Shown: piece by piece, positions 53,684 to 64,000 of the stretch
Layout of the letters: every line of letters begins with the position of its first letter
How positions within the stretch are numbered: the stretch's first letter is position 1
Assembly: GCA_964450735.1 (NCBI GenBank)
Contig: CAYVDC010000001.1
Coordinates: forward strand, 69,577 to 133,576
From: an uncultured Candidatus Saccharibacteria bacterium
Lineage (GTDB): Bacteria > Patescibacteriota > Minisyncoccia > Phycocordibacterales > UBA9973
Reading direction: 5' to 3'
DNA length: 64,000 nucleotides
The notes under the pieces: model-generated
What the model was told of the DNA's origin: nothing
Database searches by the model: none
Seen by the model: the letters and a program-made list of their open reading frames with translations, nothing else
Translations under genes and position numbers: made by a program

Positions 53684-54016
53684 ATGGAAGATGAAAAACC
53701 AATTGGTGCGTTTATTCAATCGTTAAAGCGCAACAACACACAAATTAAATCAGACAGAGCCACTGCAATCTCGGAAGATGCTGAAATGGCTTATAAACGA
53801 ATGGTGGAAGATTTTGAGATGGAAATGAAACGTCTCCTTCGAGAACGCAGTAATATGCTTGACCTCTCTCCATCAAACACGCAAAGTTTGATGTTAGCCA
53901 ATGATTTCGACGCACGTAAATTTGCAGAAAAGGATTTGGAAATTGGTGTTAAGATTCGCAATCTTGAAATTAAAATCGACGTGGCTAAAACCCGTTATAA
54001 CGAACTTTTTTCTTAA
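53684..54016 (+). CDS. Hypothetical coiled-coil protein (locally higher GC)
   Basis: 110 aa. Its codons (cgc, acg, ctc, gac) look more GC-rich than the neighbours, from visual inspection only. Confidence 0.4.
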   Translation: MEDEKPIGAFIQSLKRNNTQIKSDRATAISEDAEMAYKRMVEDFEMEMKRLLRERSNMLDLSPSNTQSLMLANDFDARKFAEKDLEIGVKIRNLEIKIDVAKTRYNELFS

Positions 54017-54022
54017 AAAAAC

Positions 54023-54880
54023 ATGGGATATACAAGCTATTCGGTTGATAACCGACTTACAAGAGCAACTTCTTTAAATTACACAAAAGCGTCAGTTGAC
54101 ACTTTATTTAGTCAAAATATTAAACGAAAGGCGCACGAATCAATGCTCCCTATCAATTCTAAATTGAGAGAGTGTAGAGATTCAGATGCACATCCACGAA
54201 CAATTCCCATTATTTTAGGTCTTGATGTGACAGGAAGTATGAGAAAAATTCCTGAAAATCTAATCAGAGAAGGGTTGCCTAAATTAATGTCAAAGCTGAT
54301 TCAAAAAGGTGCTGACGATGCTTCTGTCTTGTTTTTAGCAATTGGAGACCATATCCACGATAGCTTTCCATTACAAGTGGGGCAATTTGAATCGGGAGAC
54401 GAAGAACTCGATATGTGGCTCACTCGTACCTATTTAGAGGGGAATGGTGGTAGAAATCAACAAGAAAGCTATTTATTAGCTTATTATTATGCCGCTTTTC
54501 ACACTGCAACAGACGCATTTGATAGATGGGGAAAAAAAGGAACACTTATCACTGTTGGCGATGAACCATCAATAAAGAGTTTGCCTAAGAGTGCAATTAA
54601 GGAAATATTTGGTGACGATGTGGATAGGAGTTATTCATTTGAAGAACTTTATCAAAAAGCATCTGAAAGATATGACATCTATCATATTCACATCACACAC
54701 ACTTCTCTCATTTCTCAAACAGGATGGAAATCTTGGAAAGAAGCTATTGATGAAAAATGTATTATTCTCACCGATTATACATTGATTCCCGATACTGTGG
54801 CAGATTTGGTGATTGGAAATGTTTCCACCGAATCAATTATTTCGCAACCAAAAACACAGGAGGAAGAAATCTTTTTATAA
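54023..54880 (+). CDS. von Willebrand factor A (vWA) domain protein
   Basis: IPIILGLDVTGSM carries the MIDAS D-x-T/S-x-S motif; the later GG..Q and TLITVGDEP strands fit the vWA beta-sheet order. Confidence 0.5.
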   Translation: MGYTSYSVDNRLTRATSLNYTKASVDTLFSQNIKRKAHESMLPINSKLRECRDSDAHPRTIPIILGLDVTGSMRKIPENLIREGLPKLMSKLIQKGADDASVLFLAIGDHIHDSFPLQVGQFESGDEELDMWLTRTYLEGNGGRNQQESYLLAYYYAAFHTATDAFDRWGKKGTLITVGDEPSIKSLPKSAIKEIFGDDVDRSYSFEELYQKASERYDIYHIHITHTSLISQTGWKSWKEAIDEKCIILTDYTLIPDTVADLVIGNVSTESIISQPKTQEEEIFL

Positions 54881-54883
54881 AAA

Positions 54884-56005
54884 ATGGATAAATCTGCTAA
54901 GATAGTTTTAGGCACGATTTGGGGAGATGAAGGAAAAGGGAAAATGGTTAATTCTCTATCAAATTCATCTCCCAATCCAATTGTTATTCGCTTTAGTGGT
55001 GGACAACAAGCGGGACATTGTGTTATTGAAAATAATATAAAACATGTTTTTTCTTCATACGGAGCAGGAACATTACATGGAATTGAAACATATTTAACAG
55101 AAGATTGTACATTCTATCTTCCTTCTATTTTAATAGAAAATAAAGTGTTAAAGGAAAAGAATGTTTATGTTCCAAAATTAAAAATTCATCCATTAGCTAA
55201 AATTACCACTCCATACGATGTAGCCTATAATAGACTAATGAGTGGAAAAGGTTCAACTTGTGGACTTGGTGTAGGAGCTACGATGAAACGTCATTTAGAA
55301 ACTCCATATAAGCTCCATGCTATTGATTTGAAATATCCCTCTATTTTAAATGCTAAAATGGAGGAAATAAGAAAATACTATGAAGAAAAAATCATAGCAG
55401 AAACAAACTATTTTATTCGTGATTTTGTTGAATTATATCAAGATGAATTAACCGTGTTTTTTTGCGTTCTAAGCGACGTTCTCTCGTTGGTTGATATAAT
55501 TCCCTATTCATACTTAGAACGCTTCTCTACGTTGATATTTGAGGGGTCTCAGGGCATTCTATTAGATATGCACTTTGGTATTTTTCCAAATGTTACATTT
55601 GCGAACACTCATTCGATAAATGCTATTAAAATTTGCAAAGAATTGGGAATAGAAAATATTGAAACTTTTTATATTTCTCGTTGCTATTTAACAAGACATG
55701 GTAGGGGGTGGATGGGTAATGAAATTTTAGAATCTGAATTGAAAAACAATGACGAAGAAATCAATGTCTATAACAAATATCAAGGAGAATTTAGAGTGGG
55801 TACATTTGATTATGATTTACTAAATTATGCAATTGAAGTGGATAGAATTTTCAATCTTGATTCAAAGATGACTTTAGTAATTAATTGTTTAGACCAATTA
55901 GACGATTTTACATTAGATGAATCCAAGTTAAAGTTTCAGTTTAATAACATTTTATTGGGGGATAGTCCAAATACATTTTTAAATTTATATGAAAAAGCAA
56001 TTTGA
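54884..56005 (+). CDS. Adenylosuccinate synthetase family protein, short form (PurA-like; PurZ candidate)
   Basis: GTIWGDEGKGKMV matches PurA GTQWGDEGKGKIV; FSGGQQAGHCV matches YQGGHNAGHTL; FEGSQGILLDMHFG matches FEGAQGTLLDIDHG; NCLDQLDD matches TKLDVLDG. At 373 aa it is closer to archaeal PurA and phage PurZ lengths than to bacterial PurA (~430 aa). The IMP-site GTTGRGIGP is replaced by GSTCGLGVG, and TTGRRRRTGW by LTRHGRGWM. Confidence 0.8.
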   Translation: MDKSAKIVLGTIWGDEGKGKMVNSLSNSSPNPIVIRFSGGQQAGHCVIENNIKHVFSSYGAGTLHGIETYLTEDCTFYLPSILIENKVLKEKNVYVPKLKIHPLAKITTPYDVAYNRLMSGKGSTCGLGVGATMKRHLETPYKLHAIDLKYPSILNAKMEEIRKYYEEKIIAETNYFIRDFVELYQDELTVFFCVLSDVLSLVDIIPYSYLERFSTLIFEGSQGILLDMHFGIFPNVTFANTHSINAIKICKELGIENIETFYISRCYLTRHGRGWMGNEILESELKNNDEEINVYNKYQGEFRVGTFDYDLLNYAIEVDRIFNLDSKMTLVINCLDQLDDFTLDESKLKFQFNNILLGDSPNTFLNLYEKAI

Positions 56006-56177
56006 ATTACAGAAAGACGTTAATTTTTTTGGAAGAATGATTCCAAAAGGAACAATTTACACAGAGTTGGGGAATAGAGATTTATATCAACCACAATTCA
56101 ATGGTTCTAAACATCCCAACTTAGAACTTAGTTTCATGGTTGTTCTTGCAAATGAAGAATATTTTAAACAAATCTAA
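55989..56177 (+). CDS. Possible small ORF between purA-like and the methyltransferase
   Basis: A 62-aa ORF filling a 180-nt gap. Confidence 0.25.
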   Translation: MKKQFELQKDVNFFGRMIPKGTIYTELGNRDLYQPQFNGSKHPNLELSFMVVLANEEYFKQI

Positions 56178-56187
56178 TCGTTTAATT

Positions 56188-57027
56188 ATGACTATTTTTG
56201 GTATATGTGATGGTATTTCTTGTGGACAATTGGCTTTAGAAAGAGCAAATATTAATTATGATGTCTATTATGCTTCTGAAATTGATAAATTTGCTATTGG
56301 TAACACTCAACAAAAATTTCCAAATACAATTCAATTAGGGGATGTTGGTGAAATAGATGGAAAAGGTCTTCCTAAAATAGACCTGCTTCTTGGAGGTACA
56401 CCCTGTCAATCATTTAGCAATGCTGGACTTGGTGGTGGATTTCGAGGGAAAAGTGGATTGTTTTGGGAATATGTTAGGCTTTTAGAGGAAACTTCTCCTA
56501 CTTATTTTCTTTTAGAGAATGTAAGGATGAAAAAAGAATGGAAAAATATTATTTCTAATGCTCTTGGGGTAGAACCCATCTCGATTAATTCATCCACAGT
56601 TTCGGCTCAAAATAGACCAAGACTATATTGGACAAATATTCCAAATGTTTCTGTTCCATTTGATAGGGGGATTATGTTAAAAGATATTATTGAAAAGGAT
56701 GTTGAGTTTAAATTTCCAAGTGAGAGAAGAATTGGCTACACTGTTGGGAGAATGAATAAAGGATTTAGTAAAGGAATCATTTACGATTTGAATGTAAAAG
56801 CTCCATGTTTAACAGCCCAAATGTATAAAGCTCTTAACAATCATATCATTTTAGACCCAAATATTAATAAAATAAGATTTCTATCTCCTGTTGAGGCTGA
56901 ACGTCTCAAAACAATTCCTGATAATTATACGGATACAATGAGTGCCACTCAACGCTATAAATCATTAGGAAATGGTTGGACAGTGGACGTGATTTCACAT
57001 ATTCTTTCCTTTATACCCAATTTATGA
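56188..57027 (+). CDS. DNA (cytosine-5)-methyltransferase (orphan, no cognate nuclease seen)
   Basis: Motif I-like IFGICDGISCG, motif IV GGTPCQSFSNAG (PCQ) and motif VI LLENV are all present. The ORF track starts at 56140; ATG 56188 places motif I at the N-terminus, as in C5-MTases. Confidence 0.75.
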   Translation: MTIFGICDGISCGQLALERANINYDVYYASEIDKFAIGNTQQKFPNTIQLGDVGEIDGKGLPKIDLLLGGTPCQSFSNAGLGGGFRGKSGLFWEYVRLLEETSPTYFLLENVRMKKEWKNIISNALGVEPISINSSTVSAQNRPRLYWTNIPNVSVPFDRGIMLKDIIEKDVEFKFPSERRIGYTVGRMNKGFSKGIIYDLNVKAPCLTAQMYKALNNHIILDPNINKIRFLSPVEAERLKTIPDNYTDTMSATQRYKSLGNGWTVDVISHILSFIPNL

Positions 57028-57719
57028 AAAAAGATGTATTGAGAAAACTTCTTTCTAAATATTATTTAGGGGGGAGAATAGAAGAGAACACAATAATTGT
57101 AAATGAAAATGGTGTTCTTATTCCATTTCACACAGATGATGTTCAAATGGGGGGAATTATTTCCTATCCACAAAAACTATTTTCTCAAAATCTTCCCATT
57201 TATAATACAGGATTTTTCCTAAAAAACATTAATCTCCTTTCAGATGAAGTTGAAGTTGAATACAAAGATAATTTCATTAACGTTAGTGATGATAAGTTCT
57301 TAGTTCAAATTCAATTAGCTGATGGAGAATCTATCAATAGTTATGAAAGTATGCTTGCTTATAAAGAGGAAGAATATATCTTTAACTTTGATATTGATGA
57401 ATTCTTTATTAAAGATTTTCTATCCATGTGTGACATTTATAAATCATTAAAAGATAATAATTTTTCAATAAAGAATAAGAAGAGAGAAATATCTTTCACT
57501 TTTGGGGACTATTCAAAGATAAGTTTTAAAAAGAATATTGAAACAAATATTGTTAGAAGTTTTGAAAATCATTATAAAAGTGATATATTTGCAGATATTT
57601 TAAGAGTAAATAAAGAATTTGATAGTGGACGTTTCTTTATGTCCGAAAATACAATCAAACTCAATTTCATTTCAGAAAACATTAATTCAACCTATTATAT
57701 TGTTAAACAAGATGTATAG
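57024..57719 (+). CDS. gp45: Sliding clamp, T4 gp45-like
   Basis: A ~230-aa two-domain layout. FTFGDYSKISFKKNIETNIV aligns with T4 gp45 LTLGDYDGENTFNFIINMANM. ATG 57024 overlaps the MTase stop (ATGA). Confidence 0.65.
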   Translation: MKKDVLRKLLSKYYLGGRIEENTIIVNENGVLIPFHTDDVQMGGIISYPQKLFSQNLPIYNTGFFLKNINLLSDEVEVEYKDNFINVSDDKFLVQIQLADGESINSYESMLAYKEEEYIFNFDIDEFFIKDFLSMCDIYKSLKDNNFSIKNKKREISFTFGDYSKISFKKNIETNIVRSFENHYKSDIFADILRVNKEFDSGRFFMSENTIKLNFISENINSTYYIVKQDV

Positions 57720-58005
57720 TATTAAACCAATGAATGATAAGGTGGTGTTAGTTGAAAAACAATTAAACACACAAACGTATGGAGCTATTGTTAGACCTGA
57801 TATGGGAAAAGAAAAACCTATTGTTGGACAGGTTGTACAAACTAATGATGGATATTATTTAGGAGATAATTTTGTGAATTCTTCTGTTAGTGTTGGTGAT
57901 TTAGTTCTTATCCCTTTATTTGGTACAGTGAAAACAGTGATAGATAAGCAGGAATATTTAATTTGTGCTGAAAATAACATTCTTGGAAAACTAATTGAGC
58001 AATGA
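57711..58005 (+). CDS. groES: Co-chaperonin GroES / T4 gp31-like
   Basis: MYSIKPMNDKVVLV matches GroES MNIRPLHDRVIV. It is ~98 aa with a mobile-loop region followed by a beta-barrel (VGDLVLIP...EYLICAENNILGKL). Confidence 0.75.
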
Positions 58006-58346
58006 TATATAATGTTCTTTTGTCGGATTTAAAAAAGTTTTCAGATGTTGATTTAGAAAAAGTTCAAGAATCAATATCTCGAATCACATATCCTTTATTT
58101 GGAGAATTGGGACATTCTTCTAAACCAACCATCAATCTAAATAATGTTTCACATGAAATCAAAAATGTTAGAATTGAAAATGATAAAGTTTATGGAGACA
58201 TTCTTTTTACAAAAAATAATGGAAAGAGGGCTTCTGAATATTATGAAAAGGGAATAGCTAAGTTTGAAATGAGAGATGTAATATTCATTCAAAACGATAA
58301 ATGTGTAACAGAGATAATTTCATTTGATTTAGTAAACAAACAATAA
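58002..58346 (+). CDS. Hypothetical protein between groES and groEL
   Basis: 114 aa. Confidence 0.4.
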   Translation: MIYNVLLSDLKKFSDVDLEKVQESISRITYPLFGELGHSSKPTINLNNVSHEIKNVRIENDKVYGDILFTKNNGKRASEYYEKGIAKFEMRDVIFIQNDKCVTEIISFDLVNKQ

Positions 58347-58349
58347 TTT

Positions 58350-59981
58350 ATGAAAAAAGACGTAGTATTTTCAGGAGCAGGTCGTAAGAGATTATTCTCA
58401 GGAATTGAAAAAGTGAGTAGAAGTGTTATTTCTACAATGGGAGTTGGTGGAAGGAATGTTGTATTTAAAGATGAATATGGAAATTTACGTTCCACCAAAG
58501 ATGGAGTGACAGTTGCTAAAAATCTTTCTAATTTAAAAGACCCTGTTGAAAATTTTGGAGCAATGTTGATTAAACAGGCTTCTGTTAAAACAGCAGAGCA
58601 AGCAGGTGATGGGACAACCACTTCTACATTATTAGCCTATCATCTTATTTCCAAATCTCTTAATCATCTCGATACAGGAGCTAATTCTGTTGAACTAAAA
58701 AATGGAATTGAATTTGGAGCATCGGAAATTATAAAGGCTCTTTCTGAAATTAAAACAGAAATCAATTCTTCTGAACAGATTAAACAAGTGGCTACACTTT
58801 CTGCTAATGGGGATGAAACCATTGGTGATTTGATTACAGAGGGAATTAACTATGTAGGGGCTGATGGAATCGTCGTTGTTGAGGAATCAAAGACAGGAGA
58901 GACTAAGTTAGAAAAGGTGGAAGGAATTCAGTTTGATAGGGGATATAAATCCCACTATTTTGTTACAGACCAAAGTAAAATGACATGTGATTTTAGCGAT
59001 GCTTACATTTTAATGGTGGATGAACGTATTTCATCAGCAAATGACCTTCTTCCTATATTAGAATTCATTTCATCTGAACAAAAACCATTAGTTGTTGTGG
59101 CAGAAGAAGTGGAAGGAGAGGCAATTGCCACATTAATTGTTAATCATAGCAGAGGAATAATCAAAGCATGTGCTATTAAAGCTCCTGAATTTGGTGATAG
59201 AAGAACATTATTTTTGGAAGATTTAGCCATTATTACAGGAGGAAAAGTATTTAATAAGAATAAAGGACTTCCTCTTTCCGATTTCGACCCACAATTATTG
59301 GGGAAATGTAGGACAATTAATGTAAAAGCATCAAAAACCACAATTGTAGATGGTGCAGGAGATTCAGAAGAAATCAAATCTCGCATTTTAGATATTAAAT
59401 CACAGATTGATTCATGTGAATCCAATTACGAAAAAGAGAAATTACAACAACGTCTTGGTAAATTAGTCGGAGGTGTTGCTATTGTTTCCATTGGTGGACG
59501 AACAGATGTCGAGATAAAGGAACGTAAAGACAGAGCAGAAGATGCGTTATACGCCACATATGCGGCTATTGAAGAGGGAATATTAGTTGGAGGAGGATGT
59601 TCTTTTATGAAAGCTCTAACAACAATAAATAACACAGCTATAATTTCCGATAATATGTCTGATTCGTATTGGACAGGATTTAAGATTCTTCTATCATCTG
59701 TAAAAGAACCTTTCTTTCAAATTTTAAGAAATGCAGGATATGGAGAATCAGATATTTACGGCTATGTGCCTTCAATCTCGAATGGAGATTCTTCAATTGT
59801 AAATCCTCTCAGTGGAGAAGTGGTTGATGCGTTTGAATTAGGTGTAATTGACCCATTCAAAGTGACACGTACAGCATTGGAAAATGCAGTGTCGGTAGCA
59901 GGTACTGTTATCCTAACAGAATGCGTAATCTTTGACGAAGATGAAGAAAAACAAGAACCATCTCCTTATAACTTTCAATAG
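58350..59981 (+). CDS. groEL: Chaperonin GroEL (Hsp60) homolog
   Basis: TKDGVTVAKNL, AGDGTTTSTLLA and GGG motifs are present. At 543 aa it is collinear with bacterial GroEL, but the C-terminus is acidic (DEDEEKQEPSPYNFQ) instead of GGM repeats. Confidence 0.95.
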   Translation: MKKDVVFSGAGRKRLFSGIEKVSRSVISTMGVGGRNVVFKDEYGNLRSTKDGVTVAKNLSNLKDPVENFGAMLIKQASVKTAEQAGDGTTTSTLLAYHLISKSLNHLDTGANSVELKNGIEFGASEIIKALSEIKTEINSSEQIKQVATLSANGDETIGDLITEGINYVGADGIVVVEESKTGETKLEKVEGIQFDRGYKSHYFVTDQSKMTCDFSDAYILMVDERISSANDLLPILEFISSEQKPLVVVAEEVEGEAIATLIVNHSRGIIKACAIKAPEFGDRRTLFLEDLAIITGGKVFNKNKGLPLSDFDPQLLGKCRTINVKASKTTIVDGAGDSEEIKSRILDIKSQIDSCESNYEKEKLQQRLGKLVGGVAIVSIGGRTDVEIKERKDRAEDALYATYAAIEEGILVGGGCSFMKALTTINNTAIISDNMSDSYWTGFKILLSSVKEPFFQILRNAGYGESDIYGYVPSISNGDSSIVNPLSGEVVDAFELGVIDPFKVTRTALENAVSVAGTVILTECVIFDEDEEKQEPSPYNFQ

Positions 59982-61548: not shown

Positions 61549-61846
61549 ATTTATTGACTATTTAACAAAGGAGAAGAAAAAATGGAAGAATTTAACAGAA
61601 GAAGAAAAGAATGAATATTCACCTTTTGTTATTAATTCTTTTCTTTCCAACTCAGAAGAATTAGTTGAAATAATAAATTTCCTTAACATCTATTATAAGA
61701 TTCCAAAAAAAGAACATTATAATTTCTTATTGAAAACCCTTCCTAAAAAGAAAATGTTTATTGGCTTTTCTAAAAAAGAAAAGAAAATTGATAAAGTTGA
61801 AACTAATTCTAAATCAATTCAGTTTATAAAGAAAAAGAAAAAATGA
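61541..61846 (+). CDS. Hypothetical Lys-rich small protein
   Basis: 101 aa. Confidence 0.35.
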   Translation: MFKFIDYLTKEKKKWKNLTEEEKNEYSPFVINSFLSNSEELVEIINFLNIYYKIPKKEHYNFLLKTLPKKKMFIGFSKKEKKIDKVETNSKSIQFIKKKKK

Positions 61847-63084
61847 ATTTAATAGGAATCGCGGGGAAAGCCCAAGCTGGAAAAAACTTAACAGCATCTA
61901 TTATTCAAAAATTAACATCTCCTCATTACAATGATGTTGATATAGATTGGAATAATCTATCGAAATATAATTTTACTAATAGCGAATGGGAACAAAAATG
62001 TTTTGCAGATAAGCTGAAAGACATAGTTTGTATTTTGATTGGATGTACTCGCAAACAATTAGAAGATGGAGCATTTAAAGAAACTGAATTAGGAGAAGAA
62101 TGGTGGATATATGATGTCAATGAATTTCAACAACCATATGAAGAAGGAGATTGTGAACCTATACCTGTTATAAAATTAACACCAAGAAAATTATTACAAA
62201 CTATTGGTACTGATTTATTTAGAAATAGGTTACATCCTGATATTTGGTGTAACTCTCTTTTTTCAGATTACAATGAGGATACTGAAAAATGGATAGATGT
62301 TGTAAATTATGAAGGTAGTTATCAAATTTCTTCTTTTGGTAGAATAAAAAGTTTAGATAGAAAAATAGTTTATGGAGAAGGTATTGGTCAATATCATACT
62401 AAAAAAAGTCAATTTTTAAAACCTACTCTAAGTGGTGGATATGAAACAGTATCTTTAAGTGGTAAAACTTTTACTCTACATTCTTTAGTAGCTAAACATT
62501 TTGTAAAAGGTTATCAAGAAGGGTTTGTTGTAAATCACATTGATTACAATAAAACAAATAATTTTTATAAAAATCTTGAGTGGATAACCCAAGAAGATAA
62601 TATAAAACATAATAAAACTACTCTTAGGGGTAATTTTGGAGAATCTCAAAAAGATGCTAAATTAGATTCTGATAAAGTATTAGCAATAAAAAAACTTATT
62701 GAATATAATACTTTATCTCAAAATAAAATAGCAAAATTATTTAATGTTTCTCCAACTACAATTTCAGGTATTAAAAAAGGTAAAAAGTGGAATCATGTAG
62801 GTAAAGATATTGATAAAATAGAACCTATATTACCTGTATTTGCACCTAAATGGATTATCACAGATGTTCGATTTCCAAACGAGTGTAAGAAAATAAAAGA
62901 AAAAGGTGGAATTATAATTAATGTGGTGAGAAATCATTCTATTAATAAAAATGAACATGTCTCAGAAAGAATGTTAGATGGATATAGTTTCGATTACCAA
63001 ATAAATAATTTTGGAACGATTGAAGAATTGGTTAAACTTGTAAAAGAAATTTTGATTAAAGAAAATATTTTAGAAAATGATTGA
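61843..63084 (+). CDS. gp1: dNMP kinase (T4 gp1-like) with an in-frame NUMOD4-HNH-HTH homing-endonuclease domain insertion
   Basis: N-terminal MNLIGIAGKAQAGKNLTA matches T4 gp1 MKLIFLSGVKRSGKDTTA; LLQTIGTDLFRNRLHPDIW matches LMQALGTDLIVNNFDRMYW; C-terminal WIITDVRFPNE...GGIIINVVR...FGTIEEL matches YYIVPDTRQDHE...GATVIHVVR...DGSLEEL. Between them (aa ~146-335, nt ~62280-62850) lie a NUMOD4-like box (EGSYQISSFGRIKS), an HNH box (HSLVAKHFVKGYQEGFVVNHIDYNKTNNFYKNLEW) and an IENR/NUMOD1-like HTH (LSQNKIAKLFNVSPTTISGI). Confidence 0.75.
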   Translation: MNLIGIAGKAQAGKNLTASIIQKLTSPHYNDVDIDWNNLSKYNFTNSEWEQKCFADKLKDIVCILIGCTRKQLEDGAFKETELGEEWWIYDVNEFQQPYEEGDCEPIPVIKLTPRKLLQTIGTDLFRNRLHPDIWCNSLFSDYNEDTEKWIDVVNYEGSYQISSFGRIKSLDRKIVYGEGIGQYHTKKSQFLKPTLSGGYETVSLSGKTFTLHSLVAKHFVKGYQEGFVVNHIDYNKTNNFYKNLEWITQEDNIKHNKTTLRGNFGESQKDAKLDSDKVLAIKKLIEYNTLSQNKIAKLFNVSPTTISGIKKGKKWNHVGKDIDKIEPILPVFAPKWIITDVRFPNECKKIKEKGGIIINVVRNHSINKNEHVSERMLDGYSFDYQINNFGTIEELVKLVKEILIKENILEND

Positions 63085-63526
63085 AAAAATAAAACATTGG
63101 AGAGAAGTTTTTGGACTTCCTAACAGAACAGTTCCGCAAATACCCAGTGATAAAGAAATGGCTTTGTCTTTTAAATTGATTCTTGAAGAAACAGAGGAAT
63201 TGAAATTAGCTATTGAAAACTATTCTCTGAATGACATTGCTGACGCAATAGGTGATTTATACTTCGTAGTTACGCAGATGGCTATGGTGTGTGGATTAGA
63301 CCCAAAAGAACTTGTTGAAAAGGTCTATGATTCCAATATGAGTAAACTCTGTTTAACAATAGAAGAATCGTTAGATAGTGTCTTTGAATATAAAAGAAAA
63401 GGAATAGATGTTTATGCTGAAAAATTCAATGAATATTATATTTTGAAAAGACTAAGTGATGGTAAAGTATTGAAATCTATTAACTTCAAAGAACCAAATT
63501 GGAATTATGATAATGATAGGCAGTAA
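63077..63526 (+). CDS. MazG-like all-alpha nucleoside triphosphate pyrophosphohydrolase (T4 gp56 dCTPase-like or MazZ-like)
   Basis: LILEETEELKLAIEN...DAIGDLYFVVTQMAMVCGLDP fits the MazG/HisE EExxE...DxxxD metal-binding helices. Size is 149 aa. Confidence 0.55.
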   Translation: MIEKIKHWREVFGLPNRTVPQIPSDKEMALSFKLILEETEELKLAIENYSLNDIADAIGDLYFVVTQMAMVCGLDPKELVEKVYDSNMSKLCLTIEESLDSVFEYKRKGIDVYAEKFNEYYILKRLSDGKVLKSINFKEPNWNYDNDRQ

Positions 63527-64000
63527 AGCCATAAAAAGATGGTTTGAAGATTTCCCAAGAACTCCCAAAGATGTTGATTACATTGTTGATTATAAAACAA
63601 AAGGTTCGAGCGAAATAGAATTATTATACAACCCAATTCTTTACAAATTCATTAAAGAAGAATTTCCATATTGGGAAGTGGCAAGTCCTGATGTTTTATA
63701 TACATTAAAAATGTCACATGTTGTTGGATGGGATATAAATTGGGAAAAACATTTATTTGACATTCAATTCTTAAAAAAGAAAGGATGTAAATTAATCTCT
63801 GAATTGTTTTATGAATTGTATGAATTTTGGAACACTGTTCACCAGAAAAATAAAAGAAGTGAATTGAATATGTCTTCTGAAATGTTTTTTGATAATGCTA
63901 TTAAATATCCTGTTCCACATGATATTATTCATACTTTTATAAAAAATCCTCCCACATTTACTAAAGTGTTGGTTGGGGAAGTGGAGGTGAGTGAATCATT
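63514..64000 (+). CDS. Nucleotidyltransferase-fold protein (3' end beyond the window)
   Basis: MIGSKAIKRWFEDFPRTPKDVDYIV fits the minimal NTase signature GS-x(n)-D-x-D. The frame stays open to the window end. It is not in the ORF track because no stop is reached. Confidence 0.35.

Follow-up and report, generated by a model that had tools for sequence, protein, structure and literature searches.

A DR2231-type NTP pyrophosphohydrolase gene adjoining a phage dNMP kinase gene: a candidate dUTP or non-canonical dNTP pyrophosphatase

The window, i.e., the whole 64,000-nucleotide stretch of phage DNA analyzed here, ends in a run of overlapping genes, with a short MazG-like ORF placed between a kinase gene and a DUF-containing ORF. 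The features that bear on its interpretation, including two genes lying further upstream, are:

54884-56005: PurA-like ORF (PF00709, 6.6e-42)
56140-57027: C5-cytosine methyltransferase (PF00145, E=3.6e-38)
61843..63084, + strand: T4-type dNMP kinase (PF21448) carrying an in-frame insertion of an HNH homing-endonuclease module (Pfam, PHROG, and alignment with the uninterrupted kinases of L007 and L010)
62284..62844, + strand: approximate extent of the NUMOD4 + HNH_3 + HTH insertion in the kinase gene, about aa 148-334 (Pfam/PHROG domains and alignment)
63077..63526, + strand: DR2231-type (PF01503) all-alpha NTP pyrophosphohydrolase gene, 149 aa, ATG start (the MazG-like gene)
63185..63199, + strand: E37-E38-x-x-E41 metal-binding motif (L-E37-E38-T-E-E41-L) in helix 2, aligning with E46-E47-x-x-E50 of DR2231
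63242..63256, + strand: D56-x-x-G-D60 (D56-A-I-G-D60) metal-binding motif in helix 3
63332..63346, + strand: S86-N-M-S-K90 motif at the end of helix 4, aligning with 'ANLSK' of DR2231
63464..63475, + strand: K130-V-L-K133 motif in the C-terminal beta-hairpin
63507..64000, + strand: DUF7277/DUF7275 ORF overlapping the MazG-like 3' end and continuing past the window's end (L005, a near-identical contig, gives it a length of 249 aa)

The stop codon of the kinase gene overlaps the start of the MazG-like gene by 8 nt (63077-63084), and the two therefore look co-transcribed. The insertion in the kinase is matched by the PADLOC homing-endonuclease model (E=4e-26), with no Rfam match to a group I intron model around it. 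In the sister phage (L001), the MazG-like gene has no DUF7277/DUF7275 ORF beside it, and a megablast search of 20 kb against deposited phages returned no match.

Family membership and conserved residues

The MazG-like ORF is a real gene with intact metal-binding motifs. Its product matches the PRA-PH model of Pfam (PF01503; E=2.2e-10, 41.3 bits against a cut-off of 21.3) and PHROG 671 'nucleotide pyrophosphohydrolase' (E=2.9e-21), is marginal on the MazG model (PF03819; 23 bits, cut-off 22), and has 144 database homologs at E<=1e-3. The annotated ATG start is supported by the alignment, in which the homologs begin at the same 'MIEKIKHW' as the window protein. Across 50 aligned sequences, residues E38, E41, D56, D60, G73, S86, N87, M88, K90, K130, and K133 are invariant, with E37 and S89 nearly so; the S86-N-M-S-K90 segment would make a phosphate/sugar contact. 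The AlphaFold (AF2) model (mean pLDDT 95.9) displays a helical MazG core extended by a fifth helix and, at the C-terminus, by a beta-hairpin, with the strands (112-117 and 120-125) and the segment after them at a pLDDT of about 98. A preliminary description of this DNA had taken EExxE and DxxGD motifs in the ORF as the mark of an all-alpha MazG/HisE-type NTP pyrophosphohydrolase; by the Pfam, PHROG, and homolog-conservation evidence these motifs lie far beyond chance expectation, and the class is borne out by profiles, invariant residues, and the AF2 fold alike.

A PDB search with the single sequence gave noise, and a profile search was required: the 50-homolog profile recovered DR2231 (E=5e-14 to 1e-12), followed by 3nl9 (7e-10), with the next families at 3.6e-4 or worse. 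Likewise, the top 37 Foldseek matches of the AF2 model in the PDB are all DR2231 (TM 0.55-0.67), mostly spanning about 153 columns, and the next other match is at E=0.07. By sequence profile and predicted fold the protein belongs to the DR2231-like subfamily of PF01503: the model match (the DR2231 fragment itself scores 82 bits), the fold, and the acidic and N-x-S-K motifs were all recovered. DR2231 of Deinococcus is, to our knowledge, the sole characterized member of this subfamily. It is described by Mota et al. (2016, FEBS J 283:4274) as having 'exclusive activity on dUTP'. There are 31 positions strongly conserved inside each phage clade yet different between the two, and at many of these (e.g., R9, L14, R17, Q67, Y84) DR2231 is unlike the window's clade, so that its substrate specificity is not safely transferable. 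The clade-specific conserved polar residues R9, R17, Q67, Y84, and Y105 might, with low probability, point to a substrate unused by characterized MazG-fold enzymes.

Gene neighborhoods of the family

The family consists of two phage clades defined by their context, one found in RNR/dNMP kinase/ThyX cassettes and the other in 7-deazaguanine clusters. The window's own clade (at least 50% identity) comprises about 10 independent lineages, in which the MazG-like gene is recurrently accompanied by an RNR (L006, L007, L010, L178, and L179; directly upstream in four), a T4-type dNMP kinase at 0-4 kb (the window, L007, L010, L179, and L180), and ThyX (L010, L178, and L179), as in the order NrdB-NrdA-133aa-MazG-...-dNMP kinase-ThyX of L179. 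Such a cassette is a dTTP-synthesis route short of only a dUTPase. Pfam lists precomputed for 11 loci show no PF00692 dUTPase or dCMP deaminase. With E. coli Dut as tblastn probe, the count of trimeric dUTPases is 0 in 1.47 Mb around MazG-like genes and likewise 0 in a 1.36-Mb control set, and hence carries no weight. Against dUTP as the substrate, none of thymidylate synthase, RNR, and dCMP deaminase was detected in the 74 kb examined of the roughly 185-kb genome of the window's phage. In Flavobacterium phage immuto, whose genome is complete, a family member (gp208; HMM E=6e-41) coexists with an RNR, ThyA, and a thymidylate kinase; no dUTPase is annotated, and tblastn gives no Dut-like match at E<=1. 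Outside the window's lineage, the MazG-like gene is situated directly upstream of PolB in 52 of 83 loci. A chromosomal family member in a Saprospiraceae genome, with non-phage surroundings, fits generic house-cleaning.

The embedding of the second clade in 7-deazaguanine clusters hints that the family may handle other substrates. FolE, a part of these QueD/QueE/DpdA clusters, lies directly upstream of the MazG-like gene in 51 loci, and a dihydroneopterin-triphosphate pyrophosphatase was considered on this account; it was set aside for the window gene given that all of the FolE loci fall in the other clade and that no FolE was found in this phage.

Proposed function and alternative substrates

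We propose that the gene codes for a DR2231-type dUTP pyrophosphatase that is coupled to the dNMP kinase and serves phage replication, a reading that, taken whole, is on balance probable. That the protein hydrolyzes (d)NTPs with release of PPi is very probable; dUTP, the likeliest of the substrates considered, is put forward tentatively as the main one, with gene context in its favor and the divergence of the pocket residues from DR2231 against it, and 'dUTP or non-canonical dNTP pyrophosphatase' is the best reading. The carboxylates E37/E38/E41 and D56/D60 would bind divalent metal ions, and the dNTP would be cut at the alpha-beta phosphate bond, yielding dNMP and PPi. Expressed alongside the phage replication and nucleotide-supply genes, and translationally coupled to the T4-type dNMP kinase, the enzyme would remove dUTP and keep uracil out of the DNA made by the phage family-B polymerase, while the dUMP so supplied would enter thymidylate synthesis, with the resulting dTMP then phosphorylated by the dNMP kinase. 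The general idea of nucleotide-pool editing voiced in the preliminary description stands in this form, whereas both of its specific readings, i.e., a gp56-type dCTPase and a MazZ partner of a PurZ, fall away.

A broader house-cleaning of damaged or non-canonical purine dNTPs (dITP, dXTP, 8-oxo-dGTP, 2-OH-dATP), which would protect PolB-driven replication and could destroy dITP formed via the adjacent dNMP kinase, is an unlikely alternative that draws on the conserved catalytic core, on the tie to polymerase and dNMP kinase alike, and on the clade-specific pocket residues unlike those of DR2231. However, we know of no DR2231-like subfamily member acting on such substrates, and the RNR/ThyX cassette context favors pyrimidine metabolism. 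The finding that phage dNMP kinases trigger dITP-based Kongming immunity speaks for a link to dITP, but the sole described counter-measure is Dmp of T5, which is not an NTP-PPase (bioRxiv 10.1101/2024.12.20.629578).

Less probable still is the hydrolysis of canonical dGTP and/or dCTP so as to bias the dNTP pool to A+T for an AT-rich genome, as proposed for the cyanophage MazG. The G+C content of the window (31.6%) agrees with such a role; however, Flavobacteriia genomes are themselves AT-rich, and with Flavobacteriia as the likely hosts of the phage there is therefore little compositional mismatch to correct and no specific evidence for the bias. The precedent itself, cited as a dNTP hydrolase and described as dGTP-specific (Rihtman 2019), is a classical MazG (PF03819) and hence of another subfamily.

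Two readings involve the PurA-like gene 7 kb upstream. In the first, which we regard as quite improbable, a lineage-specific co-option would have the MazG-like enzyme pass a deoxypurine monophosphate such as dIMP or dGMP, made from dITP or dGTP, to the divergent PurA-like enzyme associated with the vWA-like protein, the product then being phosphorylated again by the adjacent dNMP kinase, or else the clade would act on a substrate unused by characterized MazG-fold enzymes; were the co-option true, a purine dNTP would be altered or boosted by a route that does not depend on PurZ. In the second, advanced in the preliminary description, the PurA-like enzyme would belong to a base-replacement pathway and receive its dGMP, or a different deoxypurine monophosphate, from the MazG-like enzyme acting in the manner of MazZ. 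The latter could appeal to the presence of both genes in this phage and its sister phage, and to the PurA-like protein having no counterpart of E. coli R303, an Arg in contact with the ribose 2'-OH. Nevertheless, it is very unlikely on several counts. The MazG-like protein has no match to PF04447, which S-2L MazZ matches at 2e-11; hhalign gives a probability of 4.8% to S-2L MazZ and 1% to the probable phiVC8 MazZ-2; no MazZ is found among the PDB profile matches of the family at E<=10; and the family HMM has no match in S-2L or phiVC8. The PurA-like gene is itself real, but its product is not PurZ as judged from its sequence: it keeps the catalytic Asp of PurA (GDEGKG, against GSTGKG in S-2L PurZ), as do 67 of the 67 P-loops read in its viral relatives, and it also keeps the guanine-binding Asp; it is 21% identical to PurZ as against 32-33% to phage PurA-likes; it reaches 39.4 bits on the NCBIfam PurZ model NF038379 (cut-off 300); and its PDB matches include no PurZ structure. 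Further, the window and the two related contigs (L005, L001) contain no DatZ, DpoZ, or PurZ homolog, and the phage, whose polymerase is of family B, also has a gene for a D12 N6-adenine methyltransferase.

Nor do the two genes travel together. Among 86 MazG-like loci, a PurA-like gene is nearby only in the window's own lineage (0 of 83 outside it), and conversely the MazG-like type is seen in 0 of 160 PurA-like or vWA-like loci (0/80 viral PurA-like and 0/80 bacterial cassette loci; the viral contigs were recovered by an alignment-based scan, a single-sequence scan having returned nothing). What is conserved alongside the PurA-like gene is instead the vWA-like gene and the gene for a 110-aa protein directly upstream of it.

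Equally doubtful is an anti-defense role in which the enzyme would degrade a host signaling nucleotide such as (p)ppGpp. The phage MazG-like Atd1 illustrates that MazG-fold enzymes of phages can deplete (p)ppGpp, but it is the catalytic domain of a classical MazG, i.e., of a different subfamily (bioRxiv 10.1101/2022.06.09.495361). Moreover, the neighbors of the window gene serve replication and nucleotide metabolism, the region is not an anti-defense one, and PADLOC gave no match for the MazG-like, PurA-like, vWA-like, or 110-aa proteins. Neither this role nor one in Kongming/dITP immunity found specific support.

Finally, a gp56-like dCTPase excluding cytosine from the phage DNA, for which the common superfamily and the T4-like replication module might be invoked, is almost certainly wrong: gp56 belongs to PF08761 (E=2e-5), to which the MazG-like protein has no match at E<=0.1, hhalign of the family profile with gp56 gives a probability of 3.4% so that the kinship is one of superfamily and not orthology, gp56 has no tblastn match in any of the 86 loci, the window, L005, and L001 contain no gp42 dCMP hydroxymethylase, beta-gt, or ThyA-like gene at E<=0.01, no other gene of the gp56 pathway was detected in the 74 kb examined of this phage's genome, and the C5-cytosine methyltransferase 6 kb upstream, which the preliminary description had rightly recognized, is encoded by the same phage.

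The MazG-like gene is one more phage copy of a recognized house-cleaning family, and its viral structure matches already carry the label 'NTP pyrophosphohydrolase, DR2231-like' in public annotation. The annotation of this family recurs in hundreds of phage genomes. The MazG-like and PurA-like genes of the window speak neither for a 2-aminoadenine (Z) genome nor for the exclusion of cytosine.

Comparison with known systems

The closest known system is DR2231 of Deinococcus radiodurans (PDB 2YEU, 2YF3, 5HVA), which shares PF01503 with the window protein, is its best PDB match by both profile and fold (TM about 0.65 over the full length), and has in common with it the EExxE motif, a second acidic motif ending in D, the N-x-S-K signature, and an aromatic residue 2-3 positions past the last Asp (DLLYV in DR2231, DLYFV in the window protein). 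The identity between the two is merely 18-22% in the Foldseek alignments; D60 aligns with D82 of DR2231, whereas E79 of the latter is replaced by D56 at one position earlier. The window enzyme also differs in its longer C-terminal helix and the hairpin bearing the invariant KVLK, and, unlike DR2231, is the product of a phage gene coupled to that of a dNMP kinase.

Within the family, gp208 ('hydrolase') of the cultured Flavobacterium phage vB_FspM_immuto, at 32% identity, comes from a phage with a related replication module, but belongs to the other clade, lying between FolE and DpdA of a 7-deazaguanine cluster and differing at the 31 clade-specific residues. The classical MazG proteins (PF03819) of cyanophages and E. 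coli share the superfamily and the dNTP to dNMP + PPi chemistry, with E. coli MazG reaching E=0.024 against the family profile and the window protein being marginal on their model. S-2L MazZ (PDB 7ODY family) and MazZ-2 have in common with the window protein the MazG-HisE fold and a three-carboxylate metal site, and S-2L MazZ also carries extra C-terminal beta-strands (PMC8342488); MazZ differs in belonging to PF04447, in its 105-aa length, in its location between datZ and purZ, for which there is no equivalent Z-cluster here, and in having no significant sequence kinship to the window protein. [quoted passage not shown]

A DR2231-like member of the MazG fold

The gene under study and the neighbors that bear on it are as follows.

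Features of the window and of two related contigs
53684-54016, 110-aa ORF, first gene of a three-gene cassette
54023-54880, 285-aa vWA/MIDAS-like ORF, directly 5' of the PurA-like gene
54884-56005, PurA-like enzyme (PF00709, 6.6e-42)
56140-57027, orphan C5-cytosine DNA methyltransferase
57619-59981, GroES and GroEL, between polymerase and clamp loader
61843-63084, + strand, T4-type dNMP kinase gene, interrupted by an insertion at ~62284-62844
63077-63526, + strand, MazG-like NTP pyrophosphohydrolase ORF, 149 aa, ATG start
L005:15860-16567 (near-identical contig, same phage), D12-class N6-adenine methyltransferase (PF02086, 6e-10), 5.4 kb beyond the MazG-like gene
L093:12768-13292 (Flavobacterium phage immuto), gp208, between FolE and DpdA

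The translated MazG-like ORF contains both L-E37-E38-T-E-E41-L and D56-A-I-G-D60, and a Pfam scan matches it to the PRA-PH family PF01503 (E=2.2e-10, 41.3 bits vs a cut-off of 21.3) and marginally to PF03819 (MazG). PHROG 671 'nucleotide pyrophosphohydrolase' is a further match (E=2.9e-21), and the protein database contains 144 homologs at E<=1e-3, of which the 50 aligned share invariant E38, E41, D56, D60, G73, S86, N87, M88, K90, K130, and K133. These matches and residues bear out the ORF and the EExxE/DxxGD motifs of the preliminary description. The AlphaFold model built from the 50-homolog alignment (mean pLDDT 95.9) displays the MazG helical core, to which a fifth helix and a β-hairpin are appended. 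A PDB-wide search with a profile of 50 homologs recovered DR2231, the MazG-like NTP pyrophosphatase of Deinococcus radiodurans, as the best match (E=5e-14 to 1e-12), followed by the uncharacterized 3nl9 (7e-10); the remaining MazG-fold matches, viz., a T. maritima MazG-related protein, Sulfolobus MazG, E. coli MazG (0.024), and HisE (0.16), lie at E>=3.6e-4, and S-2L MazZ was absent even to E<=10. In Foldseek searches with the model, the top 37 matches were all DR2231 chains (E 4e-5 to 7e-4, TM 0.55-0.67), with alignments mostly spanning ~153 columns, and the next match had only E=0.07. The PF01503, profile, and Foldseek matches also uphold the all-alpha MazG/HisE-type fold proposed earlier. 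The DR2231-like assignment holds both ways, as PF01503 in turn matches a DR2231 fragment with 82 bits. A predicted viral structure library already lists many of the top matches as 'NTP pyrophosphohydrolase, DR2231-like', and the gene is a further member of this known family.

The gp56 and MazZ readings and the PurA-like neighbor

The preliminary description had offered two alternatives, a gp56 dCTPase analog or a MazZ-like partner of PurZ, along with profile comparison and purZ co-occurrence as checks; both were run, and neither alternative survives. Profile-versus-sequence comparisons with the window's family led us to reject S-2L MazZ (PF04447; probability 4.8%) as a counterpart, T4 gp56 (PF08761, the dimeric dUTPase family, vs PF01503; 3.4%) as an ortholog, and the small ORF in the phiVC8 mazZ position, probably MazZ-2 (1%), as a counterpart. 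The S-2L and phiVC8 genomes gave no match to the MazG-like family HMM. Given the different Pfam families, these probabilities, and the HMM result, the protein is kin to gp56 and MazZ at the superfamily level only. The earlier argument from the C5-cytosine methyltransferase stands: because the phage encodes both this enzyme and the D12-class N6-adenine methyltransferase, its DNA is argued to contain ordinary C and A. The former gene is missing from the same position in the sister phage (L001), and no restriction enzyme gene is recognizable beside either.

The MazZ reading further requires that the gene at 54884-56005 encode PurZ. Its product reaches 123 bits against the NCBIfam PurA equivalog and 39 against the PurZ model, where the cut-offs are 402 and 300, respectively. 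Its PDB matches are bacterial PurA structures with none from PurZ, and it is closer in sequence to PurA-like proteins from phages of Rhizobium and Mycobacterium (32-33% identity) than to PurZ (21%). In the multiple alignment its P-loop reads GDEGKG (D13 kept) vs GSTGKG in S-2L PurZ, and both H41 and the guanine-binding specificity Asp are kept; S23 is listed among the PurZ-specific substrate-contact residues (PMC8342488). The P-loop Asp is likewise kept in all 67 readable P-loops among the best 80 viral PurA-like loci. The neighbor is hence not PurZ, and the PurZ-style RefSeq name of its phage relatives looks like an over-annotation; nor is it a standard PurA, since the Arg corresponding to E. 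coli R303 is missing and the C-terminal region is shortened. Homologs of DatZ, DpoZ, PurZ, and MazZ were undetectable in the window, in L005, which runs on for another 9.7 kb, and in L001, and the DNA polymerase of the phage is of family B.

Of 86 collected loci carrying relatives of the MazG-like gene, just two have a PurA-like gene within 10 kb, L005 (the same phage) and L001 (MazG-like 70% and PurA-like fragment 86% identical to the window's), and PurZ, MazZ, DatZ, and gp56 were matched at none. Conversely, the PurA-like family has at least 257 relatives in viral contigs, and the MazG-family HMM found nothing at E<=1e-3 in the best 80 loci (1.36 Mb) of these, and the gene is absent from 80 Flavobacteriia chromosomal cassette loci. 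The PurA-like gene has partners of its own: in 74-75 of those best 80 viral loci it is immediately preceded by the 285-aa ORF, with the 110-aa ORF before that in 32, and the entire cassette (window 53684-56005) is present in 79 of the 80 chromosomal loci. As there is no co-occurrence outside the phage's own lineage, the joint presence of the MazG-like and PurA-like genes looks coincidental.

The cassette is probably the most interesting item of the neighborhood. Searches of Pfam, PDB sequences, and PADLOC gave no match for the 285-aa protein, whose model (pLDDT 79.8) resembles von Willebrand A and integrin I-domains. The protein carries a MIDAS-like 'DVTGSM' motif and belongs to a family of 1,855 members (E<=1e-10) that neither Pfam nor PADLOC models. 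The cultured Rhizobium phage RHph_TM30 encodes the same cassette (gp017-019), and a 184.7-kb NCBI contig, which probably represents this phage's entire genome, encodes an identical copy of the window's vWA-like protein (P0121). The window's GroEL shares 47% identity with the immuto protein; taken together, this match and the spread of the cassette suggest a host among the Flavobacteriia.

Genomic contexts of the two MazG-like clades

MazG-like genes at >=50% identity, from some ten independent lineages, form the window's clade and recur within a nucleotide-supply cassette.

Gene orders in the window's clade
L179: NrdB-NrdA-133aa-MazG-...-dNMP kinase-ThyX
L178: class II RNR-136aa-MazG-two small ORFs-ThyX
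L180: MazG-132aa-dNMP kinase
L007 and L006: NrdB-NrdA-MazG
Window: dNMP kinase-MazG, 8-nt overlap

These genes make up the de novo dTTP pathway (RNR to dUMP, ThyX, and dNMP kinase), with dUTPase as the sole missing step. Neither a PF00692 dUTPase nor a dCMP deaminase occurs in the precomputed annotation available for 11 loci. A tblastn probe with E. coli Dut gave no match in 1.47 Mb around MazG-like genes, and none in a 1.36-Mb control set either, so that it lacks a positive control. RNR, thymidylate synthase, and FolE are not visible in the 74 kb of this phage examined. A conserved 133-136-aa protein with no Pfam match lies between RNR and the MazG-like gene (L178:5323-5733, L179:3318-3719, also L006 and L010), overlapping the MazG-like start in four lineages, and is missing from the window. 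In two T4-like contigs of this clade, a PF18909 protein (ex-DUF5664, 'dGTP diphosphohydrolase N-terminal') lies 0.3-1.5 kb downstream (L006:11951-12748, L008:10775-11575), with PurZ absent from both loci; in Z-genome phages DUF5664 proteins hydrolyze dATP and dGTP. One member of the wider MazG-like family is chromosomal, in a Saprospiraceae genome, where its neighbors are housekeeping genes.

The window's dNMP kinase is interrupted in a variable loop by an in-frame ~187-aa NUMOD4, HNH_3, and HTH homing-endonuclease module, with no intein-like junction residues or group I intron match; the kinase is uninterrupted in L007, L010, L179, and L180 and missing at this position in L001. A palindrome at 61601-61646, inside the small clamp-loader-subunit-like ORF, has weak sub-threshold Rfam matches on both strands (Plastid-psbA-4, 25.7-28.7 bits; gathering score 56.8) and probably represents no more than a hairpin. 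The block of PolB, a conserved ~250-aa protein, GroES, GroEL, and clamp loader occurs in 40-52 related viral loci.

In the second clade (32-41% identity, at least 51 loci, spanning L011-L088), the order is FolE-MazG-PolB, then GroES/GroEL and clamp loader, with the MazG-like gene directly downstream of FolE and usually directly upstream of the polymerase. This FolE belongs to 7-deazaguanine DNA-modification clusters with QueD (38 loci), QueE (41), DpdA (34), and QueF. Immuto (NC_055915) gp208, annotated 'hydrolase', is a cultured member (HMM E=6e-41); its complete 160-kb genome encodes RNR, ThyA, and thymidylate kinase, neither dUTPase nor dCMP deaminase is annotated there, and a search for Dut-like sequences was negative at E<=1. 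Cellulophaga phage phiST has a dUTPase/MazG-like gene at a comparable position, with no role assigned (Hutinet et al., 2023). The clades share 33 identically conserved positions (metal ligands, SNMSK, KVLK hairpin); another 31 are conserved within each clade yet differ between them, several being polar and in helices 1, 3, and 4.

Proposed activity and comparison with known enzymes

We propose that the protein is a metal-dependent pyrophosphohydrolase, in which E37/E38/E41 and D56/D60 would bind Mg2+ or Mn2+, and N87/K90 and K130/K133 might hold the phosphates and sugar. Conversion of dNTP to dNMP and PPi is very probable, and dUTP is tentatively put forward as the main substrate; a connection with the vWA/PurA-like cassette peculiar to this lineage, or a novel substrate in the window's clade, is most improbable. 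The first two gradings take account of the clade-specific residues, the distance from DR2231, the lack of RNR, thymidylate synthase, and FolE in the 74 kb, and the uncontrolled Dut probe. In this scheme the enzyme would be co-expressed with the dNMP kinase and replication genes and would remove dUTP, shielding PolB synthesis from uracil incorporation and supplying dUMP for thymidylate synthesis. To our knowledge, DR2231 is the sole characterized member of the DR2231-like subfamily. It reportedly shows 'exclusive activity on dUTP' (Mota et al., 2016, FEBS J 283:4274). It is 18-22% identical to the window protein, and at many of the 31 clade-specific positions its residue is not that of the window's clade. 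We suggest that the functional analog in T4 would be the dUTPase half of gp56 activity, with the window enzyme coming from a different branch of the superfamily.
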